Source: a virus (Duplodnaviria; Heunggongvirae; Uroviricota; Caudoviricetes). From it: a stretch of DNA of 64,000 nt. Both the position numbers and the translations under genes were made by a program. The first letter of the stretch is position 1. Every line of letters begins with the position of its first letter. Of this stretch, positions 34,204 to 64,000 are shown piece by piece. The DNA lies in IMG/VR virus record IMGVR_UViG_3300042391_000580; one strand, written 5' to 3'. The notes under the pieces are model-generated. The model saw nothing but the letters and a program-made list of their open reading frames with translations. It searched no databases and was not told the DNA's origin.

Positions 34204-34223
34204 ATTTTTTTATTATTATAATG

Positions 34224-34254
34224 CAAAATTAGTATTTTTATTTGTCATATCCAA
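34224..34254 (-). promoter_or_regulatory. minus-strand promoter TTG-N20-TAATTTTGCA for the 1907-aa gene
   Basis: plus-strand CAAAATTA 34224-34231 and CAA 34252-34254; same 23-nt register. Confidence 0.55.
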
Positions 34255-34271
34255 ATACATTAAAAAGTTAA

Positions 34272-34296
34272 GGCTACTTTTCAGCAGCCTTTTCTT
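34272..34296 (-). terminator. terminator after 2469-aa gene (minus strand), GNRA-type loop
   Basis: minus-strand GGCTGCT-GAAA-AGTAGCC then TTAACTTTTT; plus strand also has T-run. Confidence 0.45.
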
Positions 34297-34297
34297 A

Positions 34298-41707: not shown

Positions 41708-41727
41708 TTTTCTTAGTTTATTTTATG

Positions 41728-41758
41728 CAAAATTAGTACTTTTTTTTGTAAAAACCAA
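41728..41758 (-). promoter_or_regulatory. minus-strand promoter TTG-N20-TAATTTTGCA for the 2469-aa gene
   Basis: plus-strand CAAAATTA 41728-41735 and CAA 41756-41758. Confidence 0.55.
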
Positions 41759-41776
41759 ATTTGTTAACTATTTTTA

Positions 41777-44700
41777 TTAACAAGGTTCATTTTTAGCATC
41801 ATCAACATCAGATTGTTGATCTGTATTTAGTCTAAAATACTCATCTATTAAGGATTGTACTAAAGGGTGATCTGATAAATCAGACTCTTGTGTTGTAAGA
41901 GCTTCATCAAGTAACATCATCTTATTAAAGATCTCTGTTGCTTTTTCTAAGCTTAGGTTTCCAGTAGCTATAGCATCTGAGTACCAATCCCTTTTTATTT
42001 CTACCATTTTGTCTAAGTTTATGATTGGCTTAGGTGAAGATAGTGGATTGTTTTCTATGTCTATCGCTAAAGAAGCTTCTGATACTAAATTCTCTTTTGT
42101 GTGTTCTGTTGACATCCATGTAGATACATCTACTGTTTGTTTTACTTTATTTAGGTCACTTATTGCTCTTAGTAACGGTTCAGAAAAATTCCCATTCATG
42201 TCAACTAAAGTCTGTGCGTCTTCTCCAACATGGTATAAATTATAAGAGGCTGGAGATAGTCCATTTACTGCTAAAGTTTGATTGAACTCTAAAACTGCAG
42301 ATCCTAAATTTTCAGTCTCCATTAACTTTTGTACTGCTGTGTCCCCTGCATTTGATGCCAACTCTTTTAATTGTATTGGGAAAGCTACTAAGTATTTACC
42401 TTGATTAAATATAATTACTGGTAACCCAGTTTTGTTAAGGTGATTACTTATGTAATCTTTTCTTACATTTTTAGTGTTACCTTTAAGTACTAATTTTCCA
42501 TCTTGTATATAACCGTAGTCAACAACAGCTTTTGGAGAAATATCAAAATACTTTATAGTACCACCTTCCATATTAAAGTTTGGTACACCTAAAAAGACAT
42601 GTTTAATAAAACTTTCTTTTGGTAATTGTATGTCTATATCTGCTTCAGTTCCTAATCCTTTCTCTTTTACTATTTTTAAAGCCTCTTCTCTAATAAGTAA
42701 GAACTCTGAGCTTTGGCTAGTATTGTAGTTAGCTTTTAGATCACCAAATTTTCTACCTCTAACATCTGATACGTTAATCTTAAGTTGGTCTGATAATAAT
42801 TTTTCTATCTTTAGAACTTCCGGAGACATTTTACCATCTTGGTCTATCATTACATCTCTGTCTTCAAGATCTTGTATAGCCTCTTGGTATTCTAGAATTA
42901 TCTTTTGATTATACTCATCGGTCAAATCTAGACTAAAGGTTACAGTGTCTCCAGGTACCATGTTGTAAAGCTCCATAGGTGAATAATCACTAGAGTCTTT
43001 AAAGTCTGTCTCCATTATCTCCCCCGTTTCATTGCTATAAACTGGCGAATACCCTGAATCTTTAGTAAAAGAGTTTTCCATGTAACCCATGTTAGCCTCT
43101 CTTAATACTTGCTCAACCTCTGATCCTTTTTTTATAGTTAGGCTTCCACCTTTATCTATAATTATAGTAGCTGTATTACCGTCTCTGAATGTTAAGACAA
43201 ATGTAGCACCGTACTTAACATTTTCAGCAACTTCTTGTATTGATATGTCTTTTGCTGTGTTTGGTACAGTTACTGTTTTATTATTAACAACTTCTGTTTG
43301 TACAAAAGCTACTGTATCTGCTAAATCCACTCTTGACAATAAGCCAGGAAGTGTCAAATGAGATATTGTAGTTCCAAATTTATTTCTGTTTATAAATACA
43401 TTTTGGTAAACTTGTAATACTTCTTCATTTCTAATAGCTTCCCCTGAATCGGTTTCTTTTGGCTCTTTCTTGGATATATTTACAATCTCTGTTTCAGTAA
43501 GTTCACTATTTATCTTAGGGTCTACAAACTGATTTACTATAATATCTTGTAATAACATATCACTTATAGATATACCAGTATCATTAGCTACATTTTCTAG
43601 TAACCTCCAATTAGCTAATCTTTCGTTAAGCTCTTGTAATCTTTTTATCTCTGCTTTTTTCAAAGAAGGTCTTGTAGTTGGTGTTAGCCTATTCCAAGTA
43701 TAAGGGCTTTTAAAAGATATTGTTTTATTGTCAATCTTAGGGTCTGCTAAAGCTCTTATTGCTAAGTCTTCGTACTCATCTAACTCTTCCTCTGTCATCA
43801 TAACAGGTACATCTGTACCATAATAGTCTAAAAGGTATGGACTGTTTTTGATCATGTCTACAACAGTTTCTTTTATAGTCTTCTTTCGAACTTCTTTTTT
43901 GGTTGTCTGACCATTTTTAGGTGCATATTTCTTTTCAATAGCGTCTAACTTAGCTTTTCTTTCTTTTTCAAGGCTTTCTGTACTATTAGAACTATTTCCA
44001 CCAACAAGATTCATCCTACCGTTTGAGAAAGTAGCTAAATTAAATGATGGTGGTATTCTTATACCTGCATCATTTGGGCTAACTGCCATTATATGTTCCA
44101 TCACAATATCTCCAAAATACTTATTTATATTAAGATTTTGAGTATTTATACTATTTGGGAAACCCATTATTACTAACTTGGTAGCTCCTCTATGATTTAT
44201 TTTACCGTCTATTAAAGCCTCTATTGAATTATATAAACCCTCTTTTGTAGTATTTACATTTGTGGTCCCTTCTGCCGAAGGTCCTGTATTAAGACCTGTT
44301 TTAAGTATCCCTTCTAGTGTTACTTCAGATGTTGTAAGATGTGATAAAAAGAAGAAGTCGTCTGGTAAACTTTCGATTCTATCTTTTAATTCTTTCTTGA
44401 GATTATCTTTTTCTTCTTTTGATAACTTGTTAAAGTCTTCTATATTTTGTATAGATGTACTTGGGGTATCAGAGTTTGATATTTTAGAATCATACTCATC
44501 ATTTACTTTTTGTATTTCTGCTTGTTTTTTAGCTTCTTTTTCTTCTATTGTAGGCTTATTTATTTTAGCACCTTTTTCGTTATCAATAACTTCTTTTACT
44601 GGTTCTAAATTCTCTAACCCTTGTACTATTGTATCTTCTGCTCTTTCTATAGAGCTTTCTGATAGCCCTCTTAAAAATTCTACAGTTATGTCGGTAGAGT

Positions 44701-50043: not shown

Positions 50044-52152
50044 TTATTTTTTCTTCTTAAATCTACCACCAAACTTACCTACAGTAGTTTTTTCTTTAGC
50101 TTTTTTCTCTGCCTCCGTAGCATTTACGTTAGTTATACCATATGGATTTATTAAGCTATCTACTTGTCCTGCATAATCTTTTTGCGTTTCCGGTTTATAA
50201 TTTATCCTGTATGTACCATCGCCTTGTAGCTGTACTTGTTTGTTTAATGCGTTTTGTGCATTTGCACTAGCTACTGCGTCCCAATTAGTATACTGATCAT
50301 TAAACCTAGTGTTTCTAAGATTTTGCCAATCGTTTTCATAATTAGCTAAACCTTTGTATGTTCTAGCTTCATAACTCAATGCATTTTGGTTTTCTGCCAT
50401 TTGTTCAGCATCACCTATCTTAGCATTGTAAATATCTGCTGTATTTTGTGCTTGATTATTGAATCTATTTGCCTCTGTTATTGCACTTCCTGCAGCTGCA
50501 CCTTGATTTGCTGTTAGGCCTATATTTGCTGCTGCTCTTTGTGCGTCAGACATTCCAGATAAATTCTGTTGTGCTGCTACTACTGCTCTATCTGTCTCCA
50601 TTATTTTTTGTGTTGGAGATATATAGTTAGGTTCTATTCTATTTAACCTAGTAGCAACTTTTAAAGCTGGATTTAATGTAGGTGTTTGGTAGATTCTTTG
50701 TGGTAAACTAAGAAAATCATAGTTCACAGTTCTACTTAAATCTAAACCTGGTGGATCTTTTGGTGTTTCTTTAATTGGTTCTTGTTTAACATTAAACTGA
50801 TTAATTGCATAATCTGCGTTAGTTTCCCCAACTTGTTTTTCTACATCTGTAACATTCTTTAAACTCTCTGTTGACAATTTATCTCTTAGAGGTGATGTTT
50901 TTAATTGTCTTAATGTAAATATACCGTTATCATTTAAGAACTTCTTATCTTCAGGTGTTACTAGATTCATACCCATAGAGTATCTACCTGATGTAAATTG
51001 TCCAAGTTTTGAATCAAATCCTCTAGCTATTTCTTTTTCATTAAATGTTTGATTAGTCAAGTAATCTTGTGCTTGTTTTACAGCATCCTCTCCATAAACA
51101 CTTGCGTTACTTATTATGTTTTGTGCAGAAGCCGCCATTCTATCATTCATTTTTGATTGAAGTGAGCCTATTACTTTTTGTTGAGTGTTTAACTTAACAT
51201 TATTTTTGAACTTTAGATTACCTCTATTATCAATCTCTACATTCTCTTTAAGAGTGTCGTCTGAGTAAACTAAATCTGGGAAGTTTCTATAAAGTTGTTG
51301 TAATGCTTCTTGTGCACTTTCTACATCTCCATAAGCTTCTACTCCTGTTTTTTGTTTCTCTCTTTTTCTAGTACTAAATTTATTTTCTCCTAGTGCAGTT
51401 TTTTTCTCTCCTGTTATTGTTTTTTTGAACTTTCCTGCAGTTTGGTATTTAGGTAAGTCTTTTAATAATTTAGCTGCTTTTTCTTCGCTTATGCCATACT
51501 TATTTGCTAATTCAACAATACCTCCATTTTCCATTTTATAATCTGTAGAGTCTTTTTCTTTACTCTCTTCTTGTATTTGGAACATTATATTAAACATCAT
51601 TTCTCTATCTTTTTCGATAGGTTTTTTACTTTGTGCTTGTTTATATAATTGTTTTGATAAGTAGTCTGAATTAAGGTCAGAAGTCTTTTTATCTTTAATT
51701 TTTAACTTTTGGTCTTTCATCATGCCCATTAGTTTTTCTAATTCTGCATTTATTTTATCAAGACCTGTTTTTGAATTAAATCTATCTAGTATTTTGGCGT
51801 AAGTGTCTGTAGCTTTTGCTGGTAACCCTAGCTCTTTATTTACTTTTCTAGCAACATCTGCTCCAATTTTTAAATGGTCACTTAATATTCTAGTACCGTC
51901 CTCTAGTGCTACTGGCATACCTCCTTTTTCGTGAGTTTTACCTTGGGCTTTTCTTATACCTTGTGAATCAAATATGTATTCTCCACCTTCAATTTCAGCG
52001 TTTGGTTCTACCATAGGTTTCTTACTATCTAAGGCAAACTGGTATTCCCCAGTAAGTGCCTTGAACAAATCTTTCTTCTGGCCACCTTCTGCAAAGAATA
52101 GGTTTTCAAAAACTTCTTTTGGTATTGATATTTTATTCGAACTCGACATCAT
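50044..52152 (-). CDS. virion protein (702 aa), K-rich C-terminus
   Basis: ORF overlaps end of upstream 950-aa gene by 20 nt. Confidence 0.55.
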   Translation of the reverse strand: MMSSSNKISIPKEVFENLFFAEGGQKKDLFKALTGEYQFALDSKKPMVEPNAEIEGGEYIFDSQGIRKAQGKTHEKGGMPVALEDGTRILSDHLKIGADVARKVNKELGLPAKATDTYAKILDRFNSKTGLDKINAELEKLMGMMKDQKLKIKDKKTSDLNSDYLSKQLYKQAQSKKPIEKDREMMFNIMFQIQEESKEKDSTDYKMENGGIVELANKYGISEEKAAKLLKDLPKYQTAGKFKKTITGEKKTALGENKFSTRKREKQKTGVEAYGDVESAQEALQQLYRNFPDLVYSDDTLKENVEIDNRGNLKFKNNVKLNTQQKVIGSLQSKMNDRMAASAQNIISNASVYGEDAVKQAQDYLTNQTFNEKEIARGFDSKLGQFTSGRYSMGMNLVTPEDKKFLNDNGIFTLRQLKTSPLRDKLSTESLKNVTDVEKQVGETNADYAINQFNVKQEPIKETPKDPPGLDLSRTVNYDFLSLPQRIYQTPTLNPALKVATRLNRIEPNYISPTQKIMETDRAVVAAQQNLSGMSDAQRAAANIGLTANQGAAAGSAITEANRFNNQAQNTADIYNAKIGDAEQMAENQNALSYEARTYKGLANYENDWQNLRNTRFNDQYTNWDAVASANAQNALNKQVQLQGDGTYRINYKPETQKDYAGQVDSLINPYGITNVNATEAEKKAKEKTTVGKFGGRFKKKK

Positions 52153-54985
52153 AGTTTCCTGTTTTTTTATTGTATGTATAGTTTTTTATTGTCTTACCTT
52201 TCATCATAGATAAATACTCTCCACCATTTTTCATCATTGGCTGACCTTCTTCTGGACCTTCCATTTCTGTTTCTCCTCCTTGTATCTCTTGTAATAACTC
52301 TTGTATCATCTGTATTGCCTGTTCTTCTGGCATACCCATTTGTACTAATTGTTGTAAGATTTGCTTAGGATCAGCTCCTTGTTTCAAAGCTTGTTCTACT
52401 TGTGATTCAATTTGTTCCATGTTTGGAGTTTCTCCTTCTGCACCTTCATTTTCACCTTCCATTTGTTCATCCATCATCTCTCCACCTTCTTGGTAACTTC
52501 CTTGGTACCCTAGTTGCATACCTGCTTTGTTATTTTCATACCAGTTTGGTTTTTTATTTTGAACCATTCTAGACATAGTGGCTAAGTTCCCAGATCCTAC
52601 ATTAGCTAAGTTTGAACTGTATTTTTTATTTTGTTGTTCTTTAAAAAGTTGATCCATAGCGGATAGGTTTCCAGAGCCCACTTTAGCTAAGTTTGCAGCG
52701 TATTGTGAATCTTTCATATCTTGATTATCTTTTTCAGCTTTGGCTATAGCCTCTCTGTAATCTCCACCTTCTTGGTAGTAACCGCCTTTCCTTAGCTGTG
52801 GTGTTCCTTGTGGTGCTTCTTGTTGACCACCTTGCATTTGCTCCATAACCATTTGGATTACTTGCGTAGCTTGCTCTTCTGGAATACCTGCTTGTACTAA
52901 TTGTTGTAGTATTTCTTGAGGGTCTGCCCCTTGTTGTAACATACCTGCAACTTGTTGTACTATAGCTTGCATTTGATCTCCTCCTGCTTGCTCTTCTTGT
53001 GGATTACCCATCATCATTTGCCCTCCTTCTATTTCTGGTTGCATACCTCCGTCTTGGTAACCTAACATTTTAGGAGCAGCTTGCCCTAATCTTTGTGTTC
53101 CTTGAGTGATAAAACCTGCGGCTCTAGGTGCAGCAGCTTCTCCAATACCTATAGGCATTGCTTCAAATGTTGTGTAAGGAGATGCAGATAATACTGCAGC
53201 AGCATTAAGTGTAGCTTTAGGTACTAGCTTTAATCCCATCTTAGTTTTATTTTTTAATTTTTCAGATGCAGATAATGTAGGATTGTACCTATTAGCCATT
53301 ACTTGTTTTCTGTATCCTTCAGATGTTTCACTTTCTGGAGTATTTGGATTAAGCCATGCTTTAAAATCTCCGAAAGCTTTGCTAGGATTAGCCATGTAAT
53401 ATAAAGGTAGTTCAAGACCTAATTGATCATCATATTCTGCTTGAGATCTCTTAGCATCTAATTCTCTTTGGTAGCTACCTCTTGTGTCTTGTTTAAGCTC
53501 TGGACCTTTAGGTCTTTTAGACATATCATATCCTTTAGACTTCCAAAAATCTTCAAGTGTCATTGATTTTTCAGCAGGTGCTACTTTTGCTTTTGCTTTA
53601 GGTGTAGCTTTACGCTGTACCGGTTTAGGTGTTGTAGCAACTGGTGCCTTTCTTAAATTCTCTTTTTTAAACTTCTCACTTTTTAGTTCTGATAAAAGTT
53701 TTGTATTATCTTTTGATGATCCATCTGTATAACCTAATCTCTTAGCTTCAGACCATGGCATACCTGTTTTTTCTACCCAAGTATCTCTGGCTGAACCTTC
53801 ATCATACGATGTCTTAGCTGCACTTTCAGTTTTTGGTACAGATTTGTATCCTTCAGCTTCAAGTTGATTTTTAAACCCGTAGTATGTGTCTTTGTCCATA
53901 CCTTCTTCATACCAATCTGTGGCAACTTTTGGCTCTTCCTGTGGACCAAATACTGGGTTTCTAGCTGCTATTTCTGCTTCTACTCTAGCTGAATTTGGGT
54001 ACTTGTTGATCATATCATCTTCGTAACCCATTTCCTCTTCCCCACCTTCTTGGTAATAACCACCATACCTATTCATTTCAAGCGGTCTATCTTCCCCTGT
54101 CATGTTTTTTCTTTGCTCTTCAGCATAATCCTTCATGACTTGATTTTGTCTTTTTTGAGCACCCATTCCTTGTAAGAAAGATTTTGTACCTTTCAATAAA
54201 GAGAGTGCTGCACCCCCAACAGTGGCTCCTATATTTCCATTGGCTGCACTCTTACCAGTAAAAGTAAGTGCATCATCTAAGCCCACGTCTCCATAAGGGT
54301 TTACAAATTGAGTTGTACCCATTCCTGGAGTTTCTACTTTTTTTCTAGCTGCAGCTCCTCCATCGTCAGTTGGTTTTAGTTGCTCATCTTCTGTAGACAT
54401 ACCCATGTACATTTTATTGTAATCAGGTTTGTCAGTACCTAAAGCGTTACTTTGTGCTTCTTGTGTCGGAGATTGTCCAAAATTAGTTTGCATCCCAGCT
54501 GGATTATTCTGATACCAGTTAGGTGTAGGTGTTGGTGAAGCTTTAGGCAATGGTTGGCCATATTGATCTAACTCTGCAGTTCCTGCAAATTGATATTTTG
54601 GTAATTGCGTACCACCCATTTCATGCTTTTGGTTCCACATAGAGTAAGCAATTGCTATTGCCTGTTTTTGTGGACGGCCCTCTTTCATCAAGATTCCTAT
54701 TTTTTCACTAATCCAATCTTGTTTCATACCACCATCTTTATAAGCTTTAGTTTCCGCTACATAGCTTGCCCCTCCAAATTTGTAGTCTTGGCCTGGCTCC
54801 ATATATGTAGGTTCATCCATTGCCATACCATTCTGGTCTAATGGTTGACCATATAATGGATATGGTGTGTTTCTCATTGTTATGTCTTCACTAGGTATAT
54901 AGTTTATTGGATTACTTTCAGAAGCATATCCAGGAGTATAACCTGTGTTGTTTATAAGCTTAGATGTTTTTTTGTATTTTCTCAT
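52133..54985 (-). CDS. Q/M/E/G-rich internal virion protein (950 aa) with internal duplications
   Basis: duplicated ADPxxILQQLVQxGxPEEQAxQxIQ (52273-52408, 52825-52960), GGYYQEGG x3, shares 44-aa motif with next gene. Confidence 0.55.
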   Translation of the reverse strand: MRKYKKTSKLINNTGYTPGYASESNPINYIPSEDITMRNTPYPLYGQPLDQNGMAMDEPTYMEPGQDYKFGGASYVAETKAYKDGGMKQDWISEKIGILMKEGRPQKQAIAIAYSMWNQKHEMGGTQLPKYQFAGTAELDQYGQPLPKASPTPTPNWYQNNPAGMQTNFGQSPTQEAQSNALGTDKPDYNKMYMGMSTEDEQLKPTDDGGAAARKKVETPGMGTTQFVNPYGDVGLDDALTFTGKSAANGNIGATVGGAALSLLKGTKSFLQGMGAQKRQNQVMKDYAEEQRKNMTGEDRPLEMNRYGGYYQEGGEEEMGYEDDMINKYPNSARVEAEIAARNPVFGPQEEPKVATDWYEEGMDKDTYYGFKNQLEAEGYKSVPKTESAAKTSYDEGSARDTWVEKTGMPWSEAKRLGYTDGSSKDNTKLLSELKSEKFKKENLRKAPVATTPKPVQRKATPKAKAKVAPAEKSMTLEDFWKSKGYDMSKRPKGPELKQDTRGSYQRELDAKRSQAEYDDQLGLELPLYYMANPSKAFGDFKAWLNPNTPESETSEGYRKQVMANRYNPTLSASEKLKNKTKMGLKLVPKATLNAAAVLSASPYTTFEAMPIGIGEAAAPRAAGFITQGTQRLGQAAPKMLGYQDGGMQPEIEGGQMMMGNPQEEQAGGDQMQAIVQQVAGMLQQGADPQEILQQLVQAGIPEEQATQVIQMVMEQMQGGQQEAPQGTPQLRKGGYYQEGGDYREAIAKAEKDNQDMKDSQYAANLAKVGSGNLSAMDQLFKEQQNKKYSSNLANVGSGNLATMSRMVQNKKPNWYENNKAGMQLGYQGSYQEGGEMMDEQMEGENEGAEGETPNMEQIESQVEQALKQGADPKQILQQLVQMGMPEEQAIQMIQELLQEIQGGETEMEGPEEGQPMMKNGGEYLSMMKGKTIKNYTYNKKTGNYDVEFE
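52273..52960 (-). repeat. two ~135-bp diverged direct repeats within the 950-aa gene
   Basis: plus-strand ctggcatacccatttgtactaattgttgtaagat (52310s) vs ctggaatacctgcttgtactaattgttgtagtat (52870s). Confidence 0.55.
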
Positions 54986-55001
54986 TATATTTTTATTAAT
55001 T

Positions 55002-57200
55002 TTATTTTCTACTAAATAACTTTCTTCCTAAAAACTCTGCATCTTTTCTATTTTTTGAGTCTATAACTATAGTTGTATCTCCTTTTTTAAACCTATCTGT
55101 TAAATAATTAATATCCGGTTTTCTACAGTTAACACAGCCATAGCTAGCATATCTATTTTTTGCCTCTTGTGAGTATAGTGGATTTCTGTTCTTAAAATCA
55201 TATGTTACATGCAATGCTACGTCTTTTGATTTTGGTGCTGGTTGTCCAAAAGCTGGTATAGGGTTTATCCTAAAACCTGGTTCTCCATATATATCAGCTT
55301 TAGGGTCCATTACATATGCACCTACAGGTGTTCCCCTAGATTCTGGGTGTGTTTCTAAATAGTGAACGCCCCTATTATTAACGTTTTGATCCGGGTTTAA
55401 GGCTGTTAATACTGGAAATGTTCTTGTCACTACTCCATCTTCTACTACATAACTAGTATTACTTCTCTTATCTGTAATAACTCCATTTTGTAGGTTTTGA
55501 GTGTTCCCAATATTACCTGTTATAAAATCATTAAATATATCTAACCCACTTCTATTTGATAAAGGACTCCTGTTTTCTTTATTTAATTTGTTAACTGTTT
55601 TGGTATCATTTTTAGCCTTTCTTATAGGTGCAGCAACAGATTTTTTAGTTACAGGTGGTTTTCTATCCCATAGTGGGTTAATAGGCACTTGAGGAAAAAA
55701 CTCATTAGTATTTTCTGTATCCATTTTTTTATTACTTTTTATTTTAAAATTTTTGTCTTTTAGTTGGCTTAGTAACTCTATATTAGAATCTCTTGAGCCG
55801 TCTGTATAACCTAATCTCTTAGCTTCAGACCAAGGGAGTCCTGTTTTTTCTACCCAGTTATCTCTTGCTGAGTTATGGTCAAAATTACCCCCTTCTTGGA
55901 ATTGTTCTTGAGGAAACATTATGTTTTGTTTTTTTTCCACTGCTGGATGTCTTGTAGTTCTTTCCCATTCATCTGCTTCTTGCCATGTTTTAAAAGGGCC
56001 TCCTAAGTGCTCTCCTGTTTTTTTAAATTCTTCAATAGGATCTGCTAATGGTTTACCATATTTAAAACTAGGAATCAAATAAGCTGGTTCTCCATTTTCT
56101 CCACCTATAGACATAGCTAATTCAGAACTAGGTTCAGCATAAGGTATTCTATACCCTTCTGGTAACTTTTCGCTAGTTGGTTGTAAGAAAGTTAGACTTC
56201 TGCCGCCAGTTTGGTATTTTGACACCTTGGTTACACTTTTGCCTGTACTTTGTCCACCACATTTATGGCAGTTATACATATCTTTTTCCGTAGATTCAGA
56301 TTTGTCCCATGACCAACCACAGTTAGTACACTCTACTTCTCCTTCTATCTCTCCCCCATCTTTGTAAGCTGGCTCTTGTGGTATTTGGTTTTGGAGTTGC
56401 TCGTATTGTATAGCTTCGTAATTAGGTAATTCTATCTGTGGTACTTGGTAAAACGATGAGTCTAATCCGCTATCTTGTTGTTGTTGTTGTTGAATTTGCT
56501 GTTGTTGCTCTTCTTGTTTTTGTCTTAAGGCTGTAGCTTGGTTTTGTTTAGTTTGTAATTCTGCTAAAAAATCTTTTTCTTTTTGTTTTTGTAATAGCTC
56601 TGCCTTTGCTTGCTGTGCTTCTATTTCTTCTTTAGTAGTACCTATCTCTGGAGCTGTTATGTTTGCTCCTGGATCTGTAAATAAATTCATTGACATATCT
56701 GATTCATCCTCGTAATCATAGTTTTCAGATGCAGATGGTTTTAGACTCATTTTTTTAGATAGCCAATTTTTTACAAAACCTACGCTTTTACCTTGTACAA
56801 AAGGATTATCATGTATTGCTCTAGTTGACATTACATCTGAAATTGGTCTGTTATCTGCTGTTTTATACAATTTTTTATAACCAACAGCCCCTAAAAAATG
56901 AGCCCCATACAAATCTGCATGGGTTGGCTCTATACCTAAGTTTTTTTTAAGGTAGCTTATATTACTATTAGTAAATCTAACAGCTGCTTCTTGCTGTAGT
57001 TTTGTATTAAATCTGTCTTTCCAGTCATAGCCTAAGCCTGTCCATGTATCCTTTGTAAACTGGTAAAGTCCAGATGCACTTCCAAATGGGTTTTCTGCAT
57101 ACTTCTTCCCTGCACTTTCTGAACCCCTTACTTTTGCAAAGTAGTTTGTCAAATCGTTTTCAAGTTTTTTTACTTTCCCTGTTTTATCTTCTATGTACAT
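55002..57200 (-). CDS. virion-associated cell-wall hydrolase candidate (732 aa): SLT-like N-terminus, poly-Q, zinc ribbon, C-terminal L,D-transpeptidase-like Cys motif
   Basis: ENPFGSASGLYQFTKDTW; QQQQIQQQQQQ; CTNCGWSW...CHKCGG; H...ASYGCVNC. Confidence 0.5.
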   Translation of the reverse strand: MYIEDKTGKVKKLENDLTNYFAKVRGSESAGKKYAENPFGSASGLYQFTKDTWTGLGYDWKDRFNTKLQQEAAVRFTNSNISYLKKNLGIEPTHADLYGAHFLGAVGYKKLYKTADNRPISDVMSTRAIHDNPFVQGKSVGFVKNWLSKKMSLKPSASENYDYEDESDMSMNLFTDPGANITAPEIGTTKEEIEAQQAKAELLQKQKEKDFLAELQTKQNQATALRQKQEEQQQQIQQQQQQDSGLDSSFYQVPQIELPNYEAIQYEQLQNQIPQEPAYKDGGEIEGEVECTNCGWSWDKSESTEKDMYNCHKCGGQSTGKSVTKVSKYQTGGRSLTFLQPTSEKLPEGYRIPYAEPSSELAMSIGGENGEPAYLIPSFKYGKPLADPIEEFKKTGEHLGGPFKTWQEADEWERTTRHPAVEKKQNIMFPQEQFQEGGNFDHNSARDNWVEKTGLPWSEAKRLGYTDGSRDSNIELLSQLKDKNFKIKSNKKMDTENTNEFFPQVPINPLWDRKPPVTKKSVAAPIRKAKNDTKTVNKLNKENRSPLSNRSGLDIFNDFITGNIGNTQNLQNGVITDKRSNTSYVVEDGVVTRTFPVLTALNPDQNVNNRGVHYLETHPESRGTPVGAYVMDPKADIYGEPGFRINPIPAFGQPAPKSKDVALHVTYDFKNRNPLYSQEAKNRYASYGCVNCRKPDINYLTDRFKKGDTTIVIDSKNRKDAEFLGRKLFSRK
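56475..56492 (-). repeat. (TTG)6 microsatellite, encodes poly-Gln on minus strand
   Basis: ttgttgttgttgttgttg read directly. Confidence 0.8.
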
Positions 57201-57235
57201 GTATTTATATAAATCTATTCTAGTTATATTAGTGG

Positions 57236-57265
57236 CAAAATTAAGAAAAATTATTTAATTTACAA
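57236..57265 (-). promoter_or_regulatory. minus-strand promoter-like TAATTTTGCC (22-nt register) for the 732-aa operon
   Basis: plus-strand CAAAATTA 57236-57243; TTG one position off the usual register. Confidence 0.4.
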
Positions 57266-57271
57266 AATTAG

Positions 57272-58204
57272 TTAAATATCTGACTCATTGAGAGTGAACT
57301 TTAAAGCTATGCTATATCTACTATCTTTGTCGTATGTAATTCTGTTTAAGAACCAATCCCCTACCATTCTTTCAAGAAGTGCTTTTCCTTTAAAGCTTAC
57401 AGCATTTGTGTTTACAAACTTATCTATTTGATTTTTGTCCTGTAATAAAAATGGAATGTTATTAGTATTGCTCTTTACTCTATTGTAGAAGTAGTCGTAG
57501 TTCCATTTAAAACCATCTGGGTTAGTTATCATAATATCCTGTGTACCGTTTGTGTTAGTTTTAGGATAGTTTCTTGAATTAGCCGTTTTTGTTTTCTCCG
57601 GTATTAGGTTAATATTTCCTGAACATACAATATTATTGTATATCATAGACTTATTAAATGTTAATCCTATACTAGTAGCATAATCATACTCATTGTGGTA
57701 TCTTTTTGCCTCTGTCCATATTTGGACATTGTTCAATGTCTTAGTTACAAATTCTTCTTTTATTGGGTACTCTACTGTAAATGGTTGTTTTTTACCGTAG
57801 AATACTTGGTAAGATTTGTTTGTTAATAAGTGAGACCATAGACCAAATTCTGAGTAGTCTGGGGTTACATTCATACCTGTTTGGAAGTACTTATTATGAT
57901 TTATATAATAGTTTGGCTCAAATCCATAAAAACTCATCCAGGAACCTAATACTGGAGAGTAAGCAATTGTCCAAGATACATCCTCAAAATCTGTTGGGTT
58001 TACCTCTACTGGTACTACTATATTAGTTATTATTGGATCCACTACATCCAGACAGTTGCAGTGTGCGTTCCCGTTTTGTGTTAATACAAGTGTGCACCCT
58101 TCAGGGCACTGAATATCTGTTAGTACAGTTATCTTTGTGCATTCCTGAAATGGAAACGCTTGTATTGGTGTTAATTCATATCCTTCTGGGCAAGTACAAT
58201 TCAT
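57272..58204 (-). CDS. tail fiber/adhesin-like protein (310 aa) with N-terminal CPEGYEL Cys-rich module
   Basis: N-terminus MNCTCPEGYEL...CPEGC shared with the next two genes. Confidence 0.5.
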   Translation of the reverse strand: MNCTCPEGYELTPIQAFPFQECTKITVLTDIQCPEGCTLVLTQNGNAHCNCLDVVDPIITNIVVPVEVNPTDFEDVSWTIAYSPVLGSWMSFYGFEPNYYINHNKYFQTGMNVTPDYSEFGLWSHLLTNKSYQVFYGKKQPFTVEYPIKEEFVTKTLNNVQIWTEAKRYHNEYDYATSIGLTFNKSMIYNNIVCSGNINLIPEKTKTANSRNYPKTNTNGTQDIMITNPDGFKWNYDYFYNRVKSNTNNIPFLLQDKNQIDKFVNTNAVSFKGKALLERMVGDWFLNRITYDKDSRYSIALKFTLNESDI

Positions 58205-58215
58205 TTTCTATATTT

Positions 58216-60123
58216 TTATGTTGTTACTGCTGTAAAACTTAATGGTACCATACTTCCAGATGATATATCTGGTGTAAAGGTATGTGTGCCTGCTGCTAGT
58301 GGTGTGCCTAATGCTGTAAGTGTAATTGTTTGTACACCGGTTCCTGCAAATACTCCTGTGCCTCTAAATGTTACTCCATTCGCACTTGCAATAATATCAT
58401 ATGAACCTACACTTAAACCTGTTCCTAAACTTGTTACAGTTACTGTAAGAGATTTTGTTACACCGGTTGTTATTGCTACTCCTGCTGACATAGTTCCTGT
58501 TTGTGCCCCCCAAATTAGTGCTGAAGCAATAGTACTCTTACCTCCAGTTGATGGTTGTAGTACTCTTGGTGCTGCTGATGGATTACATGGATTAATTTCA
58601 AGGATCTTATCTCCAATAATACCTTGATATACACGAGTTGTCCCTACAAAAAATTCTAATCCTACTACACCTGAGTGTTGGTCATAATATTGATTTGGGG
58701 CAGTCCCTAATACATTTGTTCCTCTTAACCTAATTTTTAAAGTCCCTACCCCAGAAGGTAATCCATTACCTATTGCTAATATTTCAGCAGCACTATATGT
58801 TATAGAAGATTGTCTTGCACCTGCTGCTGCCATATGTGTTGAGGGATCATCCCAATTAGCTATTGGTATAGGGCCACCGCCAGCATTATTCATATTTGCT
58901 ATACCTACTGGTATACCGTTTGTCATAAATTCAAACCTTGCTCTGTTACAAGTATGTCCTGATGCAGAACTTAGTGCCCATTGTGGGTTTAGTGTGCCTC
59001 CAGGAACTGTGACAACTCCTATTAAACTACCGTCTAATCTTTGAAAAGTAGGAGTTGATAAAGCTCCAGCTGTTCTTGTCATATTTATTATATTAGCAGA
59101 ACTTGTGACTGTTATTCCAAGACTTAATAGTCCTGCAGAATGTGTAGTAACAAAAGTTGCAGCTGTTTGTGTTAAGTCTACATTAAACTCTATAAAGTAG
59201 ATATGTGATTCATCATATCTAACTTCTGCTGATCCATCTGTCCCTGATAAAGTTATTGAGTGGTTAGTTGTTGCATTTGTATACTGCGAGCCTATTCCAT
59301 CGTAAACTACTCTAGCTGTAAGTGCTGCTAAACATGTAGTTACTGTTGCTCCTACATTCACTACGTAGTTAAGGTTAGTTGTACAACCGTTTGGTGCAGT
59401 TGCTTGTATGTGGTATGTTACTACTCCTGCTACTGATGCTGTCAATGTGTTTGATATTGTTGTACCTGAACCAGCTATTGCACCAGTTATTGTGCCAGGA
59501 GATGTTACAGTCCATGTAAATGTTGTCCCTGGTAATCCACTGCTAATAGCTATATTTACTGTAGCTCCACTTGCTATTGCTTGTGGTGAGCTAGGTGTTA
59601 CTATTATATCTGGGACTGTATTTACTGTGACTATTACTTCAACTGGCTGCCCTTGGCATTGGCTAGATATTTCAAAAGGTGTTATAGTATAAGTTACTGT
59701 ACCTAATCCTGTTAATGTTTGTGCTATTACGCTACTATTACCTGATGAAGCCCCCATTACTCCTGATTGAACAGCGGTCCATGTGTAAGCAATCCCAGAT
59801 TCTGTACTTGCTAATGCTATATTTGTTGCAGATCCACTACAAATAGTTTGCGGACTTGCAAATACGTCTGCTGTACATACACAAGTTGCTGCTACAATTT
59901 CTATAAGTGTACATGTGTCAAGATTTGGGTCATACGTATATCCATCTGGGCATAAGTCTAGGCCCTGTGTAATTATTTGACAATACCCACCAACTAACTC
60001 ATACCCATCTGGACAGGTTGTTATTGTGCATGACGGGTATATTGAGTCTATGTATTCACAAAAATATTCTCCTCCTATTTGTACTAGAGTTCTTCCCTCT
60101 AAGCATGTGCATGATTCTGCCAT
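58216..60123 (-). CDS. Thr/Gly/Val-rich fiber-like protein (635 aa) with N-terminal CPDGYEL module
   Basis: CPDGYELVGGYC...CPDGYTYD; long T/G/V/S beta-rich repeats. Confidence 0.5.
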   Translation of the reverse strand: MAESCTCLEGRTLVQIGGEYFCEYIDSIYPSCTITTCPDGYELVGGYCQIITQGLDLCPDGYTYDPNLDTCTLIEIVAATCVCTADVFASPQTICSGSATNIALASTESGIAYTWTAVQSGVMGASSGNSSVIAQTLTGLGTVTYTITPFEISSQCQGQPVEVIVTVNTVPDIIVTPSSPQAIASGATVNIAISSGLPGTTFTWTVTSPGTITGAIAGSGTTISNTLTASVAGVVTYHIQATAPNGCTTNLNYVVNVGATVTTCLAALTARVVYDGIGSQYTNATTNHSITLSGTDGSAEVRYDESHIYFIEFNVDLTQTAATFVTTHSAGLLSLGITVTSSANIINMTRTAGALSTPTFQRLDGSLIGVVTVPGGTLNPQWALSSASGHTCNRARFEFMTNGIPVGIANMNNAGGGPIPIANWDDPSTHMAAAGARQSSITYSAAEILAIGNGLPSGVGTLKIRLRGTNVLGTAPNQYYDQHSGVVGLEFFVGTTRVYQGIIGDKILEINPCNPSAAPRVLQPSTGGKSTIASALIWGAQTGTMSAGVAITTGVTKSLTVTVTSLGTGLSVGSYDIIASANGVTFRGTGVFAGTGVQTITLTALGTPLAAGTHTFTPDISSGSMVPLSFTAVTT

Positions 60124-60134
60124 TTTTTATTCTT

Positions 60135-63100
60135 TTAAAAATTTCTTATTGCTCTTACTCTACTTCCATTTCCTCCTTGACCGTTTGGTTGTTGTGGTCT
60201 TAGAGACCCTGCTGGTGTAGTATTGTAGTTATAAAATTGTATATTATAAGCTAAAGTGCTAGATGGAACTCTGCTTGAAGTCCAATAGTGAGATCTTCTT
60301 GTATCTCCATCTGTTGCAAAGTTTCCTATTACTGCCATATTTTGCCAAACTTTATATAATTCATCTGCACTTGGTAAATACCAGTCCGTATAACCCCCAC
60401 CTGTATAGTCTACACAAAGTTGTGCTGCGTAGTCTGTTGAAGTTGTAGATGTTGTGTAGCCAAAAGTTGAAAATAACAAATTTGTATTTGCTAATCCTGA
60501 ACCAAAAGTGGTAGGTAGAGGAGATGGTAATGGGACTGTTGGAGAAAATGTTGTCATACCTAAGCCTGCTGTTAATCCTGGCACTCCTATTGTTGGTAAA
60601 TCAAATTCTGTGACTACTAATCCATGGCATCCTGAACTATCTAGGTGAAAGATAATTCCTCCTTGATGACTATCTCCAATTGCTAAGGTACATACTTCTG
60701 CTAATACTTGAAAGCTTACAGTAGCTGTGTCACAATTTGTTAGGTTTAAATTTTCACATACTTGGTATGTTAAACTATGTGCTCCTATTGGTACTCCTAC
60801 AGAAACAACTACATCATTTCCTGATAGTGTAATTCCAGTGTCGGTTGATGATACAAAACTTACTGTTACATTTGCAGGTATTACTGCTGCTCCATTTAAG
60901 GTGTCATTTGTAAGTACATTTGTAAATGTTGTACCTCCTATTGCATCTGTTATATTTATTCCTGTTTCATCATTTGCTACTATTGGTGCACTATTTACTA
61001 CTGCAGTTGCTACTGCAGTATCACAGTTTGTTGGATTAGCTATCTCACAAATTCCGTATGTTAATGTGTACGATCCTGGAGGTGTTCCAGCAGCTACCAA
61101 TACGCTATTTCCAACAAGTGTTACGCCAGGATTGGTAGAAGATACAAAACTAGTTGTTACTTGTGCTCCTGTAACTGGTAATCCATTAAGAGTATCGTTT
61201 ACTAATACATTTGGTACTGATGTTCCTCCAGCTGCTACCGTTAATGGTACTCCTGTATTATCATTTGCTACTATTGGCACACTGTTTACTAATACTGAAA
61301 CTGTTCCTATATCACAATTTGATGGGTTTGCTACTTCACATATTCTATATGTTAATATGTATGATCCTGGAAGTGTCCCTGGAGCTACTACAACACTATT
61401 TCCAACAAGTGTTACACCAGGATTGGTAGAAGACACAAAACTAGTTGTTACTTGTCCTGATGATATTGCTACTCCATTTAGTGTGTCGTTTATCAATACA
61501 TTTGCAAATGCTGTTCCACCTGATATACTAGTTAGTGGTGTTCCTATATCGTCATTTGCTAAAATTACTGCATTATTAACTAATATATTGACATTAGCAG
61601 TATCACAGTTTGTTGGATTAGCTATCTCACATATTCTATATGTTAACGTGTACAATCCAGACGGTGTTCCTGGAGCTACTACAACGCTATTTCCAACAAG
61701 TGTTACGCCAGGATTGGTAGAAGACACAATTGTTGTGTTTACTTGTGTAGAAACTACAGGTAACCCCTCTAATGTGTCATTTACTAGAACATTTGCTACA
61801 GATGTTCCACCAGATATTGAAACTACTGGTGTACCTGTATCATTTGTTGCAATTATTTCTGGTAATGGACAATTTGCTGGTACTCTAACTAATTTGTCGC
61901 ACATAGAAGTTTCTATATTGTATGTATATCCAGGTGGACAATTTGTAGTTGTTTCTGGGTCACAGCATTTTGTTACGTTGTAAACAAATCCTTGTCCTTC
62001 AATATACTCTATACATGGGTTTTTAGGGATATAATCTTTCTTAGTTATAAAAACTCTTCTGTATCTACTATCCCACCCCATTGTAAGCCCAAGGCCATTA
62101 TATGGATTGTCTATATCTACATTTGGTAGGTAGTTTAACATTTTGAATGGTAGGTGTTCTTTAAACCAGTTTCTCATTCCACTAGCTTTGTCTCCTGCCA
62201 TAGCAGATATTTCTATCATACCTTCGCCATTTGATGGTACCATCAATACTTGCCCTCTTTTTGCATCTGCGAAAAAGTGTCCAAATTCATTTGAAACAAA
62301 AGTGGAATTTTGCGTTCCTCCATAGCCTAACCTAGTGTTATGGAAAGATGTAGATCTTCTTTGGAAGAAGGAGTTTCCTCCAAGTAATGACATTACTGGA
62401 CTAGATCCATCATCTACTTTGCTATCTACTTTGTTATATAATACAGATGTATTTGCAAATCTAGCTAAAATAGCTTGACCTTCAATATCAATTATATCTT
62501 TTAATTTTCCATAATTTGAAGGAAACTCAAAAATATCCAATGGTCTATATATTAACCATGGATCGTATAAAGAGTTCTCTGTACTATCTGGTAAGCTAGC
62601 TATTATACCATTTGGCATATCTTGAGTACACTCATTAAATGATCTTTCGTAAGTATCTGTAAGTGTTCTTCTTCTAGTCAAAGATATTTGTTTTGAATAC
62701 TCTGAGTTATATAAGAACACATTAGGCTCTCTTATAGATACTTTTTCTTCTTGTGTCCAATCTCCTAAATCTCCTACTAGTGGATAAAACTTTCTATTTG
62801 ATTCTTTTCCTGCATATCTGTAATTAGTATTTATTCTAGTTTCAGATAAAAAATTAGTTATACCATAGTAGTATAAATAGAATTTAGAGGGGCTTGTAAT
62901 ATAATTTCCTGAAGATGCAAGATTATCAAATATGTAGTCGCTATCAATGTCTGGAAAATTTGAGCCAGCATTAGAAAAATCTTTATTTTGCTCATAGCTG
63001 CAATAGAATTGAGGATTTCTGCCTATGTTACTATAAAAAAAGTAATTGTAAGGTGTTAAATCTGCTTGTTTCATTGCAGTAACTAAAAATAGTGGCATTT

Positions 63101-64000
63101 TTCTTTTTAGGGTGTGCCTTGAGATATAAGTATCCCCACCAAATATTGGTAAACATCCTGAAGTTGCATTTCTAAGATTTCCTACATATCCTGTAGATAG
63201 CCATTTTATAGAGCTTATAGTTCCATATTGAGTAGGTAAATAATTTTTTATTGCAACATATGGTGATGCTATATTTCTTACTATCTCTGGGCTTCTCCCT
63301 GCTCCACCAAATCCGGATGCTGATTGATAAGTAATACTTGCATCCGCACCTTTATCATATATTCTATAATTATTAATACTAGCAGTAGGATAAGTAATAG
63401 GCATATCTCCAAAGGATAGCAATACAGATCTTTCTCTATCAATATTATTAACATTTAATCTTTCTCCGGTTACTTCATTTGTTGTAACAAGTCTTCCGTC
63501 ATTCAAGTATTTTGCAATATGCAGTCCTCTTAATTTATTCCCATTTAACCCAGGATCTAGCATGTAGTTATAGTAACCATCTGCATAATAATAGTATGCA
63601 AAATTCTGTGGGCTACCAAAATCTCTAAATATTTTTAACCATTGGTATCTATATTCAGCATGTTTATAGATTAATGCTTCTGCTGTGCCAAATATAGCAA
63701 CGATTCCTGCTGATATGAATGCTGGAAGTCCTATACTAGTACCTACAACAAATCCACCCATAAACCAAACTTGTGCATTAGATGTAATCTCAGCTACTTT
63801 TATTAGTATTTCTCCTGCTACTTCTATTGTAGCTAAAAAGTTTGCAAGACTTCTTGCTGCAGGTGATAAGATTACCCATTTAGGGTGTCCCTGGACTTCA
63901 TCAAAATGACCTCTTGAGTTTCCAAACATGTAACCTTGAATACTAAGCTCTGAGGGTAGTCCTTGTCTATAGTAGTCTGTCTCTGGTGAATGAAATGTGT
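60135..64000 (-). CDS. large adhesin/tail fiber (>=1288 aa, N-terminus outside window): 4 cadherin-like tandem repeats + DUF1566-like C-terminal domain
   Basis: reading frame stays open upstream of ATG 63929 to the window edge; repeats with NVLVNDTLNG motifs; C-terminus GGIIFHLD...DWYLPSADELYKVW...RVRAIRNF. Confidence 0.6.
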   Translation of the reverse strand, partial: TFHSPETDYYRQGLPSELSIQGYMFGNSRGHFDEVQGHPKWVILSPAARSLANFLATIEVAGEILIKVAEITSNAQVWFMGGFVVGTSIGLPAFISAGIVAIFGTAEALIYKHAEYRYQWLKIFRDFGSPQNFAYYYYADGYYNYMLDPGLNGNKLRGLHIAKYLNDGRLVTTNEVTGERLNVNNIDRERSVLLSFGDMPITYPTASINNYRIYDKGADASITYQSASGFGGAGRSPEIVRNIASPYVAIKNYLPTQYGTISSIKWLSTGYVGNLRNATSGCLPIFGGDTYISRHTLKRKMPLFLVTAMKQADLTPYNYFFYSNIGRNPQFYCSYEQNKDFSNAGSNFPDIDSDYIFDNLASSGNYITSPSKFYLYYYGITNFLSETRINTNYRYAGKESNRKFYPLVGDLGDWTQEEKVSIREPNVFLYNSEYSKQISLTRRRTLTDTYERSFNECTQDMPNGIIASLPDSTENSLYDPWLIYRPLDIFEFPSNYGKLKDIIDIEGQAILARFANTSVLYNKVDSKVDDGSSPVMSLLGGNSFFQRRSTSFHNTRLGYGGTQNSTFVSNEFGHFFADAKRGQVLMVPSNGEGMIEISAMAGDKASGMRNWFKEHLPFKMLNYLPNVDIDNPYNGLGLTMGWDSRYRRVFITKKDYIPKNPCIEYIEGQGFVYNVTKCCDPETTTNCPPGYTYNIETSMCDKLVRVPANCPLPEIIATNDTGTPVVSISGGTSVANVLVNDTLEGLPVVSTQVNTTIVSSTNPGVTLVGNSVVVAPGTPSGLYTLTYRICEIANPTNCDTANVNILVNNAVILANDDIGTPLTSISGGTAFANVLINDTLNGVAISSGQVTTSFVSSTNPGVTLVGNSVVVAPGTLPGSYILTYRICEVANPSNCDIGTVSVLVNSVPIVANDNTGVPLTVAAGGTSVPNVLVNDTLNGLPVTGAQVTTSFVSSTNPGVTLVGNSVLVAAGTPPGSYTLTYGICEIANPTNCDTAVATAVVNSAPIVANDETGINITDAIGGTTFTNVLTNDTLNGAAVIPANVTVSFVSSTDTGITLSGNDVVVSVGVPIGAHSLTYQVCENLNLTNCDTATVSFQVLAEVCTLAIGDSHQGGIIFHLDSSGCHGLVVTEFDLPTIGVPGLTAGLGMTTFSPTVPLPSPLPTTFGSGLANTNLLFSTFGYTTSTTSTDYAAQLCVDYTGGGYTDWYLPSADELYKVWQNMAVIGNFATDGDTRRSHYWTSSRVPSSTLAYNIQFYNYNTTPAGSLRPQQPNGQGGNGSRVRAIRNF
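60660..61850 (-). repeat. four tandem ~291-bp (97-aa) cadherin-like repeats inside the 1288+-aa fiber gene
   Basis: protein repeats NDxGxP...GGT...NVLVNDTLNG...VSSTNPGVTLVGNSVVVAPGT.PGSYTLTYRICE.ANP.NCD; plus-strand shadow ORF 60727..61983 repeats LFPTSVTPGLVEDTKLVVTC x3. Confidence 0.7.

Follow-up and report, generated by a model that had tools for sequence, protein, structure and literature searches.

What is encoded by three open reading frames (ORFs) that share a cysteine (Cys)-rich motif and lie consecutively and tightly packed on the minus strand, across positions 57272-64000 of IMG/VR record IMGVR_UViG_3300042391_000580, a 64,000-nucleotide (nt) stretch of DNA from a virus of the class Caudoviricetes (the window hereafter, meaning this whole stretch)? 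An earlier note on this DNA took them for three consecutive fiber/adhesin genes. The ORFs are indeed consecutive, but they are not separate fiber genes: the first, p3, supplies the N-terminal and the last, p1, the C-terminal fragment of one conserved muzzle protein, and p2, between them, is a freed extension of it. Most probably, the locus represents a single gene for the muzzle (tail tip; Tstab/gp44 type) in a crAss-like Bacteroidota phage, fissioned at a hot spot of domain insertion. The ORFs, the parts of the muzzle core and the gene junctions (lengths in amino acids, aa) are as follows.

60135..>64000, minus strand: p3, from the ORF list; runs off the window end, with 1,287 codons within the window
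58216-60123, minus strand: p2, from the ORF list; 635 aa
57272-58204, minus strand: p1, from the ORF list; 310 aa
62025..64000, minus strand: muzzle N-fragment core of p3; p3 window residues 1-658, equal to ~1125-1782 of 2,411; ends ...RRVFITKKDYIP
57272..58051, minus strand: p1 linker and muzzle C-fragment core, residues 64-310 with the stop codon (PHROG, tblastn/blastp and AlphaFold2 [AF2])
60135-60137, minus strand: p3 TAA stop
60124..60134, minus strand: junction 1, p3 TAA / p2 ATG; 11-nt A-rich spacer AAGAATAAAAA
58205..58215, minus strand: junction 2, p2 TAA / p1 ATG; 11-nt A-rich spacer AAATATAGAAA

The full-length p3 comprises 2,411 aa, as read from a contig with an identical p2, and its N terminus lies beyond the window end. 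Both junctions in the window share one form, namely TAA, 11 A-rich nt and ATG, and arithmetic on the ORF coordinates places p2 in a different reading frame from p3. Altogether, the passage from the p3 core to the p1 core spans ~1,340 aa and two gene boundaries.

Both outer ORFs match one and the same 2,289-position profile, phrog_37948 ('virion structural protein'): residues 1-661 of p3 align with positions 1076-1739 of PHROG 37948 (E=2.4e-211) and residues 64-307 of p1 with positions 2050-2286 (E=1.6e-61), positions 1740-2049 being left unmatched by the window ORFs. These significant matches place both in the family of Cellulophaga phage phi4:1 gp042, to which the p3 core is 51% identical over gp042 residues 1076-1736 and the p1 core 45% identical over residues 2049-2285. 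In tblastn and blastp searches, p3 and p1 were colinear with single-ORF homologs, namely phi4:1 gp042 (2,289 aa), the 'Muzzle protein' of csAssE-Sib (2,257 aa), the protein of Leptolyngbya phage Lbo-JY46 (1,654 aa) and that of contig MT837925; for Flavobacterium Fpv1 gp30 (1,783 aa), the colinear match covers its last ~230 residues and p1. All deposited relatives have the p3- and p1-like parts in a single annotated ORF. Where the window is interrupted, homologs with a short linker have ...ITKKDYIP and ...YFxDVSWT... separated by 28-40 Cys-free residues, and phi4:1 carries a ~325-aa Cys-free insert at the same junction.

Homology to gp44, the muzzle protein of phicrAss001, was not visible in direct PDB sequence searches with the p3 core, p1 or the p1 family profile, which returned only noise, and thus required a structure model and profile-profile alignment. 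The AF2 model of p1, built from a 74-sequence alignment with a mean predicted local distance difference test (pLDDT) score of 79, gave only two significant Foldseek matches in the PDB, 7qok_A (E=3.5e-6) and 7qol_P (E=1.7e-5), both of them chains of the phicrAss001 muzzle protein, the next match having E>0.3. With hhalign, p3 core residues 378-615 align weakly on gp44 residues 965-1168 (E=3e-4), and p1 from the 'DVSWT' block onward aligns, again weakly, on residues ~1201-1303 (E~0.01). The signal for gp44 homology is accordingly weak at the sequence level and clear at the structure level for p1 only; both halves align on gp44 in colinear order, so that the break corresponds to approximately residue 1190 of 1,371. 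The IG2/crass insertion of gp44 occupies residues 318-1021 (PMC10172136), and on this basis the break would lie in the propeller part beyond that insertion.

The genomic setting is likewise that of a muzzle gene. In the contig with the identical p2, the order is CrAss_Ring_2, a 180-aa protein, CrAss_Ring_1, the 2,411-aa protein, the 635-aa protein and p1, and the same gene order was observed at loci L006, L008, L010-L013, L017 and L018. Downstream of p1 in the window lie genes for a transglycosylase/YkuD protein and for giant phi4:1-like virion proteins. The synteny of the clade, Ring_2, small gene, Ring_1, N-fragment, (p2), C-fragment and lysin/cargo genes, corresponds to the muzzle slot, located after the ring-protein genes and before those for cargo, lysin and giant virion proteins. 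The muzzle is not, however, encoded as one polypeptide here: there are two TAA stops with a conserved ATG after each, and we therefore file the locus as a muzzle variant rather than as an ordinary member.

At the interruption, each of the three proteins carries a Cys-rich stalk segment.

61857..62024, minus strand: ascending Cys-hairpin stalk of p3 (sequence reading)
59869..60123, minus strand: p2 N-terminal Cys stalk (sequence reading)
58052..58204, minus strand: p1 descending Cys stalk (homolog alignment, AF2)

The motif CP[DEP]GY[ET][LY] occurs four times, at 61940, 60015, 59952 and 58192, with a looser CPEGC at 58108, and in all six frames of the 64-kb window it is confined to p3, p2 and p1 (strict pattern, 0/200 shuffles). 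The earlier note was right that a Cys-rich module is shared by the three genes, and the strings it quoted are present as written; it had, however, placed the module near the N terminus of each protein, and in the largest one it lies at about residue 1,811 of 2,411, directly after the conserved core. There, hairpin 0 (C-IEYIEGQGFVYNVTK-CC) is a Cys-closed version of the ancestral hairpin, and it is followed by hairpin 1, CPPGYTYNIETSMC (CPPGYTYN..., with the motif at 61940-61920), and then by ...ANCPLPE. The p2 stalk opens with hairpin A' (MAESCTCLEGRTLVQIGGEYFC; MAESCTCLEG...C), of the same type as the p1 N terminus, continues with CPDGYELVGGYC, CPDGYTYDPNLDTC and ATCVC, and is kept in the stand-alone p2 homologs P0242-P0250. 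In p1, hairpin A is MNCTCPEGYEL...QEC and hairpin B is CPEGCTLVLTQNGNAHCNC. This grammar extends to the relatives: in all N-fragments examined, the core is followed by a Cys-closed hairpin, one or two CPxGYxY...C hairpins and usually CxC, and all C-fragments begin with an M-x-CxC hairpin, usually followed by CPEGC...CxC, after which the core resumes.

What is conserved across homologs is the cysteine pattern and not the literal motif. Among 22 homologs of p1, down to 37% identity, M1, C3, C5, C22, C33 and C49 show no variation and C37 and C51 almost none. Two further cysteines, at alignment positions ref9 and ref24, are co-present or co-absent in 71/74 aligned homologs, with two of the three exceptional rows likely being N-terminally truncated, a disulfide-like pattern of covariation in the alignment; the AF2 model contains two beta-hairpins in the p1 stalk. 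Of the EGF-like disulfide module that had been suggested, what appear to be small disulfide-type beta-hairpins remain, but the epidermal growth factor (EGF) assignment does not: the cEGF match was not significant (E=0.038, 14.3 bits versus a cut-off of 26.6, over 11 residues only), the follistatin matches were marginal, and the units have two or four Cys instead of the six-Cys signature. A second Cys-containing insertion, of ~80 aa, was noticed after the YFQTG motif in the C-fragment of L018 (P0040, residues ~85-165), and the C-core may accordingly contain a further insertion-tolerant loop.

The origin of these modules is apparent from unsplit relatives, among which intermediate forms of the fission series exist. 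P0270 lacks an insert, and in P0288 the insert consists solely of hairpins; in P0271, a vWA-like head stands between two ascending and two descending hairpins, and in P0272 between seven ascending and six descending ones (the vWA-like heads of P0271 and P0272 were assigned by reading the sequence, not by domain search). In P0043 of L015, with the ORF open upstream, the head runs stop-free into ...VV-CTCPEGYTQ.... Because both sets of hairpins flank a head in one unsplit chain, the modules amount to two legs, one ascending and one descending, of a stalk located where domains are inserted. The Cys counts of the two legs are correlated, with a Spearman coefficient of 0.77 (n=28), or 0.69 for the 21 unsplit proteins, the sequences being phylogenetically non-independent, and the hairpin numbers balance as well in each configuration observed, at 2/2, 1/1 in L018, and 1 | 1+2 | 2 in the window and L017. 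Together, correlation and balance suggest that the legs are paired.

A role of the Cys hairpins in attaching the modules to the virion is plausible, and the tails of phicrAss001 are known to be stabilized by inter-protein disulfides (PMC10172136). We tentatively consider the possibility that the Cys legs form a heterodimerizing and perhaps disulfide-locked 'zipper', in which the ascending hairpins of one polypeptide pair with the descending hairpins of another (p3 hairpin 1 with p2 A', and p2 hairpins 1-2 with p1 A-B), such that additional adhesin subunits would plug in between the halves of the split muzzle. A competing and rather unlikely explanation accepts the split as real but gives the hairpins no part in docking: they would be rigid spacers or recombination linkers, p1 would join p3 by complementation of the core, and p2 would be soluble, a decoy, or bound elsewhere. 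It draws on the adjacency of the core halves in Cys-free unsplit proteins, where the core interface alone may suffice, and on the coincidence of the cassette borders described below with hairpin-coding repeats; it is at odds with the p1 hairpin cysteines being among the most conserved positions of the family, with every free p2-type protein starting with the hairpin type of p1, and with the co-varying lengths of the ascending and descending legs.

Three independent tail-fiber/adhesin genes, whose products would all attach to the virion by the same N-proximal Cys-rich (EGF-like) module, are an improbable alternative to the fissioned muzzle gene. In its favor, the motif is present in each of these ORFs and, within the window, restricted to them; a further argument for it is the nature of p2, a stand-alone protein of immunoglobulin (Ig)-like domains with an N-terminal Cys module, the like of which recurs in other phages. 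Against it stand the membership of p3 1-661 and p1 64-307 in one protein in all deposited relatives, the composition of p1, which has no head domain and consists of a muzzle C-core matching crAss001 gp44, and the internal position of the motif in p3.

A fissioned muzzle gene also implies that the gene boundaries are genuine, and the split is real and selected. Of the best 120 clusters in a search with p1, ~85 represent stand-alone proteins ~300-315 aa long, with coverage of p1 at 90% or more, identities down to 37% and contigs of up to 120-152 kb, and the initial Met is present in 74/74 aligned p1 homologs. The usual state in the clade is two pieces, with lengths of 2,136-2,814 aa for the N-fragment and 304-350 aa for the C-fragment (seven further loci), separated at the muzzle-C junction by 10-13 nt in six of them (L006, L008, L010-L013) and by 18 nt in L018; the spacer is short in 9/9 loci examined, the longest call being 33 nt in L017. 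How the fragments are offset in frame differs by locus (0, +1 or +2), which excludes a conserved read-through or frameshift, and no group I or II intron was found in the window with Rfam. In the wider family, as sampled by an exhaustive representative search (~730 homologs), the dominant form is an unsplit protein of ~2,000-2,900 aa that ends in the p1-like part, indicating that the split is derived. That the stops are not true boundaries, owing to read-through, frameshift, stop reassignment, removal of an intron or intein, assembly error or pseudogenization, is highly improbable, for, although the spacers are only 11 nt long and crAss-like genomes are known to have alternative genetic codes as well as introns and inteins that split structural genes (PMC7886860), both stops are TAA with an ATG after each, the Met is that shared by all aligned homologs, the differing offsets fit no single conserved recoding, introns of the two groups are lacking, the intervening sequence codes for in-frame adhesin-type domains rather than an endonuclease or intein, and the arrangement recurs identically in separate assemblies and also in a phage with p2 49% and p1 57% identical. 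No split form was found among the deposited phage genomes in the collection searched, and neither a split muzzle nor this insertion site is described in the muzzle-protein literature found, in which the length variation of gp44 relatives is ascribed to insertions in the crass and IG2 domains, elsewhere than here (PMC10172136).

The three-ORF state can be traced to a cassette insertion.

60018..61984, minus strand: 1,966-nt cassette (blastn versus L006)

The nearest sequenced relative is L006, with p1 95% identical and DNA flanks of 79-85% identity, and in a blastn comparison 1,966 nt of the window (61984..60018) take the place of 41 nt of L006. The cassette holds hairpin 1, the four repeats, the Lcl_C head, the TAA, 11 nt, the ATG and p2 hairpin A', and its edges are direct repeats coding for TTxCP[PD]GY. 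Residues 34-279 of p2 are 57% identical to a segment of the L006 N-fragment that is fused directly to the core; the cassette thus releases the former C-terminal extension of the N-fragment as the 635-aa p2. The cassette region is colinear, at ~70% identity, with L017, which has a complete three-piece set of 2,504 + 658 + 313 aa whose p1 and p2 are 57% and 49% identical to those of the window. Furthermore, the same head module, near-identical over ~90 aa, is free in P0247 and core-fused in P0251. Together with the distant three-piece set of L017, these free and fused forms indicate that the hairpin linkers are sites of recurrent fission, fusion and cassette transfer. The expectation that the region would be modular and recombinogenic is thus borne out, the observed recombination acting at the hairpin linkers and not inside the repeat array. 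No near-identical phage DNA was found for the region by megablast against 50,697 phage records. Invertible or shufflon-type switching was considered and ruled out, as 55000-64000 lacks substantial inverted repeats, the best being 34 nt at 74%.

The heads carried by the stalk comprise the repeat array and C-terminal domain of p3 and the body of p2.

60693..61856, minus strand: four 97-aa (291-nt) tandem repeats of p3 (Tandem Repeats Finder [TRF] and repeat finder)
61856-61566, minus strand: repeat R1, 291 nt
61565-61275, minus strand: repeat R2, 291 nt
61274-60984, minus strand: repeat R3, 291 nt
60983-60693, minus strand: repeat R4, 291 nt
60138..60692, minus strand: Lcl_C / DUF1566-like (lectin-like) C-terminal head of p3 (weak profile and PDB matches)
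58216..59868, minus strand: p2 body (Pfam, AF2, Foldseek)

TRF reports a period of 291 with four copies at 67-77% DNA identity, close to the array of four at 60660-61850 that had been noticed in the sequence. The label 'cadherin-like' given to the repeats did not hold up: the single 97-aa repeats match no Pfam family at E<=10, including the Cadherin, Cadherin_4/5 and Big_9 profiles, and their NCBIfam matches are uninformative, while some homologous Flavobacterium proteins carry precomputed Big_9 or Cadherin_4/5 matches (PF17963, PF17803, PF17892). The closest relatives are the 97-aa repeats of Flavobacterium type IX secretion system (T9SS; CHU_C) adhesins, e.g., P0121, at 55-63% identity, a likeness suggestive of an exchange between phage and host lineage, with Flavobacterium as the indicated host; the homology to T9SS type-B adhesins is limited to the repeats, the C-terminal CHU_C sorting domain being replaced by the Lcl_C-like end. 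The large environmental clade to which the window belongs probably infects Flavobacterium. The array had also been proposed as a site of expansion and contraction, a prediction that, on the available data, fails by the note's own refuting condition of constant copy number: the window, P0122 and L017, all three lineages with the array, carry four copies each. Positional orthologs of the repeats are 67-76% identical compared with 47-69% for paralogs, which, along with the constant number, indicates that the array is old and stable. A 418-aa antisense ORF (60727-61983, plus strand) spans the array; it is a by-product of the repetitive, stop-poor opposite strand, not a gene.

The C-terminal domain of p3 had been described as DUF1566-like, and this description stands: it matches Pfam PF07603 Lcl_C (formerly DUF1566) with E=7.8e-6, below the curated cut-off, phrog_4245 with E=7e-11, NCBIfam adhesin_Lcl with E=0.0011 and the C-terminal domain of Lcl in the PDB (8q4e_A) with E=0.0017, sharing GGxI...HGLVV and DWxLP..EL...YW(T/S)S. 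The independent weak matches to adhesin_Lcl and 8Q4E make distant membership of Lcl_C likely, and we call the domain Lcl_C-like. In Legionella, the C-terminal domain of Lcl is a trimeric C-type-lectin-like binder of glycosaminoglycans (PMC11162425). In p2, two PKD_5 (PF19406) Ig-like domains occupy residues ~88-258 (E=4.3e-13, 49.4 bits, above the cut-off of 25) and further beta-sandwich domains residues 259-635; its AF2 model (mean pLDDT 76) retrieved with Foldseek generic multi-Ig strings only (GhpA, SbsB, SGBP-B, cadherins), and neither Pfam nor PHROG yielded a match for the C-terminal 356 aa. The heads of relatives include, by Pfam, PKD_5, TSP1, DUF11/CLIPPER with DUF285 and, faintly, LRR and, by reading of the sequence, vWA-like and CBM-like domains.

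Taken together, these observations are best accounted for by the following scenario. The ancestral protein would have been one chain of ~2,000 aa, in which the ...ITKKDYIP strand was joined to ...YFxDVSWT... by a short Cys-free hairpin. This hairpin would then have multiplied into a two-legged stalk, with CPxGYxY...C units ascending, CxC/CPEGC...CxC units descending and a head at the tip. A gene break between the head and the descending leg would have produced the N-fragment, with the core, the ascending leg and free C-terminal heads, and the ~310-aa C-fragment. Subsequently, the 2-kb cassette would have recombined at the hairpin-coding repeats, giving the N-fragment a new head of four T9SS-adhesin-like repeats and an Lcl_C-like domain and bringing along stop and start codons together with a new hairpin at the N terminus, by which the prior head became the separate 635-aa protein. 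The three genes are predicted to be co-transcribed and translationally coupled, given that the spacers are too short for promoters. In the hexameric muzzle, p1 would complete the fold of p3 in trans by fragment complementation; the monomer model is least confident for residues 97-132, the most conserved block of p1, as befits an interface with the partner fragment. The Cys hairpins would form a probably disulfide-stabilized stalk holding the pieces and p2 together, and six sets of heads at the tail tip would act as interchangeable adhesins for the host surface. With the C terminus of the N-fragment free, heads of any size or oligomeric state could be installed by a single in-frame junction.

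The scenario has counterparts in several known systems. The gene in the same genomic slot in phicrAss001 encodes gp44 (PDB 7QOK/7QOL; the 'Tstab', P22 gp10-like tail stabilization protein of Yutin et al.), a hexameric gatekeeper of the tail tip for which contact with the cell surface has been proposed (PMC10172136). Unlike the 2,411 + 635 + 310 aa of the window, the 1,371 aa of gp44 make up one chain, which has neither the insertion nor the Cys-hairpin stalk, and the break of the window lies ~175 residues before the gp44-equivalent C terminus. The 2,289-aa gp042 of phi4:1 and its phi17:2 homolog, a virion protein verified by mass spectrometry, has an insertion at exactly the same junction but is unsplit, its insert being Cys-free and unrelated in sequence, and has no hairpin stalk. 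The Flavobacterium T9SS type-B (CHU_C) 'gliding motility-associated' adhesins have Ig-like repeats of ~95-97 aa, with the same 97-aa period in P0121 of Flavobacterium sp. CG_9.1, whereas the phage repeats lack a sorting domain, are fused to a virion protein and form a fixed set of four diverged copies, the host arrays being long and near-identical. Like the domain in p3, that of Legionella Lcl (PDB 8Q4E) is a terminal head on an extended stalk, but p3 has no collagen-like stalk. EGF-like/cEGF and follistatin hairpins resemble the phage units in the CxCPxGYxL...C pattern and in the beta-hairpins modeled by AF2, without a significant match; the phage units are single hairpins with two Cys (ascending) or four Cys (descending) compared with the six-Cys EGF domain, and the phage matures in the cytoplasm. 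Finally, in branched or anchored receptor-binding-protein systems, extra fibers or depolymerases dock via a conserved N-terminal anchor. As in these, p2 and p1 share an N-terminal module, the heads are exchangeable C-terminal domains and swaps occur at the linker; the difference is that the anchoring partner would be the muzzle/nozzle protein itself and the module derives from its internal loop.

Several points count against a fissioned muzzle gene with docking stalks, or against parts of it. The sequence similarity to gp44 is weak, with hhalign E values from 3e-4 to 0.013 and probabilities of 3-40%, and the placement of the junction at gp44 residue ~1190 is correspondingly approximate. The number of conserved p1 cysteines is odd, 7 without the ref9/ref24 pair and 9 with it, so that a simple scheme of all-intramolecular disulfides fails; an inter-chain disulfide or a metal site could account for the odd residue. 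The pairing of the legs is read from counts in related, non-independent sequences, with a single 1/1 example (L018). The Lcl_C score of 22.6-26.6 bits lies under the Pfam curated cut-off of 34.9 and hence outside the membership threshold. The adhesin function of the heads is predicted from domain types, and the assembly of the three polypeptides, with p2 in the virion, is likewise a prediction.

The surroundings of the locus show additional features. The 71-nt spacer after p1 (57201-57271) holds TAATTTTG twice. The -7 promoter box of Bacteroidetes is TAnnTTTG, a consensus that TAATTTTG fits, and such a promoter-like box after p1, together with inner spacers of only 11 nt, suggests a single transcription unit for p3, p2 and p1, the next one beginning with the gene for a 732-aa protein. 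This protein (55002-57200, minus strand) has a transglycosylase-like N terminus (phrog_4067), a C-terminal YkuD L,D-transpeptidase domain (Pfam E=5.9e-10) and a central CxxC...CxxC knuckle; in relatives, the same slot contains Glucosaminidase or Phage_lysozyme2 domains, and the cell-wall-active domain of this presumably ejected type of protein appears to be swapped between lineages. It shares a ~45-aa motif, SARD[NT]WVEKTG[LM]PWSEAKRLGYTDGS...LLS[EQ]LK, with a 950-aa protein (52133-54985, minus strand) that also has two copies of QILQQLVQxGxPEEQAxQxIQ (weak UBA-like matches) and several GGYYQEGG runs. Giant ORFs of 1,907, 2,469 and 1,859 aa (28480-47356, minus strand) match phi4:1-type PHROGs of virion or unknown function and occupy the slot that in crassviruses holds the virion-packaged RNA polymerase and cargo proteins. 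At ~28 kb, the GC and AT skews change sign, and the large ORFs of 28480-64000 are all on the minus strand; this point marks the boundary between divergently transcribed modules. In the remaining part of the window, Rfam identified a permuted transfer-messenger RNA (tmRNA; RF04321) at 9282-9544 (plus strand) and 9577-9650 (plus strand), with 64.1 bits versus a gathering threshold of 47 (E=4.7e-10), directly upstream of tRNA-Met(CAT); ARAGORN independently calls a permuted tmRNA with the tag peptide DKEYSSQVYVELQTGRNAYG*. A two-piece tmRNA carried by a crAss-like Bacteroidota phage is noteworthy in itself.

Host recognition by crAss-like phages is poorly understood: the muzzle of phicrAss001 has been proposed to contact the cell, and no receptor-binding element has been identified in it. 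The locus described here points to where these phages may carry their host-binding parts. In this clade, one loop of the muzzle was turned into a stalk bearing exchangeable adhesin-type heads; at this loop the gene underwent one or two breaks, and each step is represented by natural intermediates. For annotation, it follows that 'hypothetical proteins' of ~310 aa and the ORFs of 2,100-2,800 aa upstream of them are fragments of one Tstab/muzzle marker gene, which matters for marker-based detection and phylogeny of crAss-like phages. Should the zipper prove true, the tail-tip gatekeeper would be a modular, hot-swappable receptor-binding platform of a kind previously undescribed in crAss-like phages.

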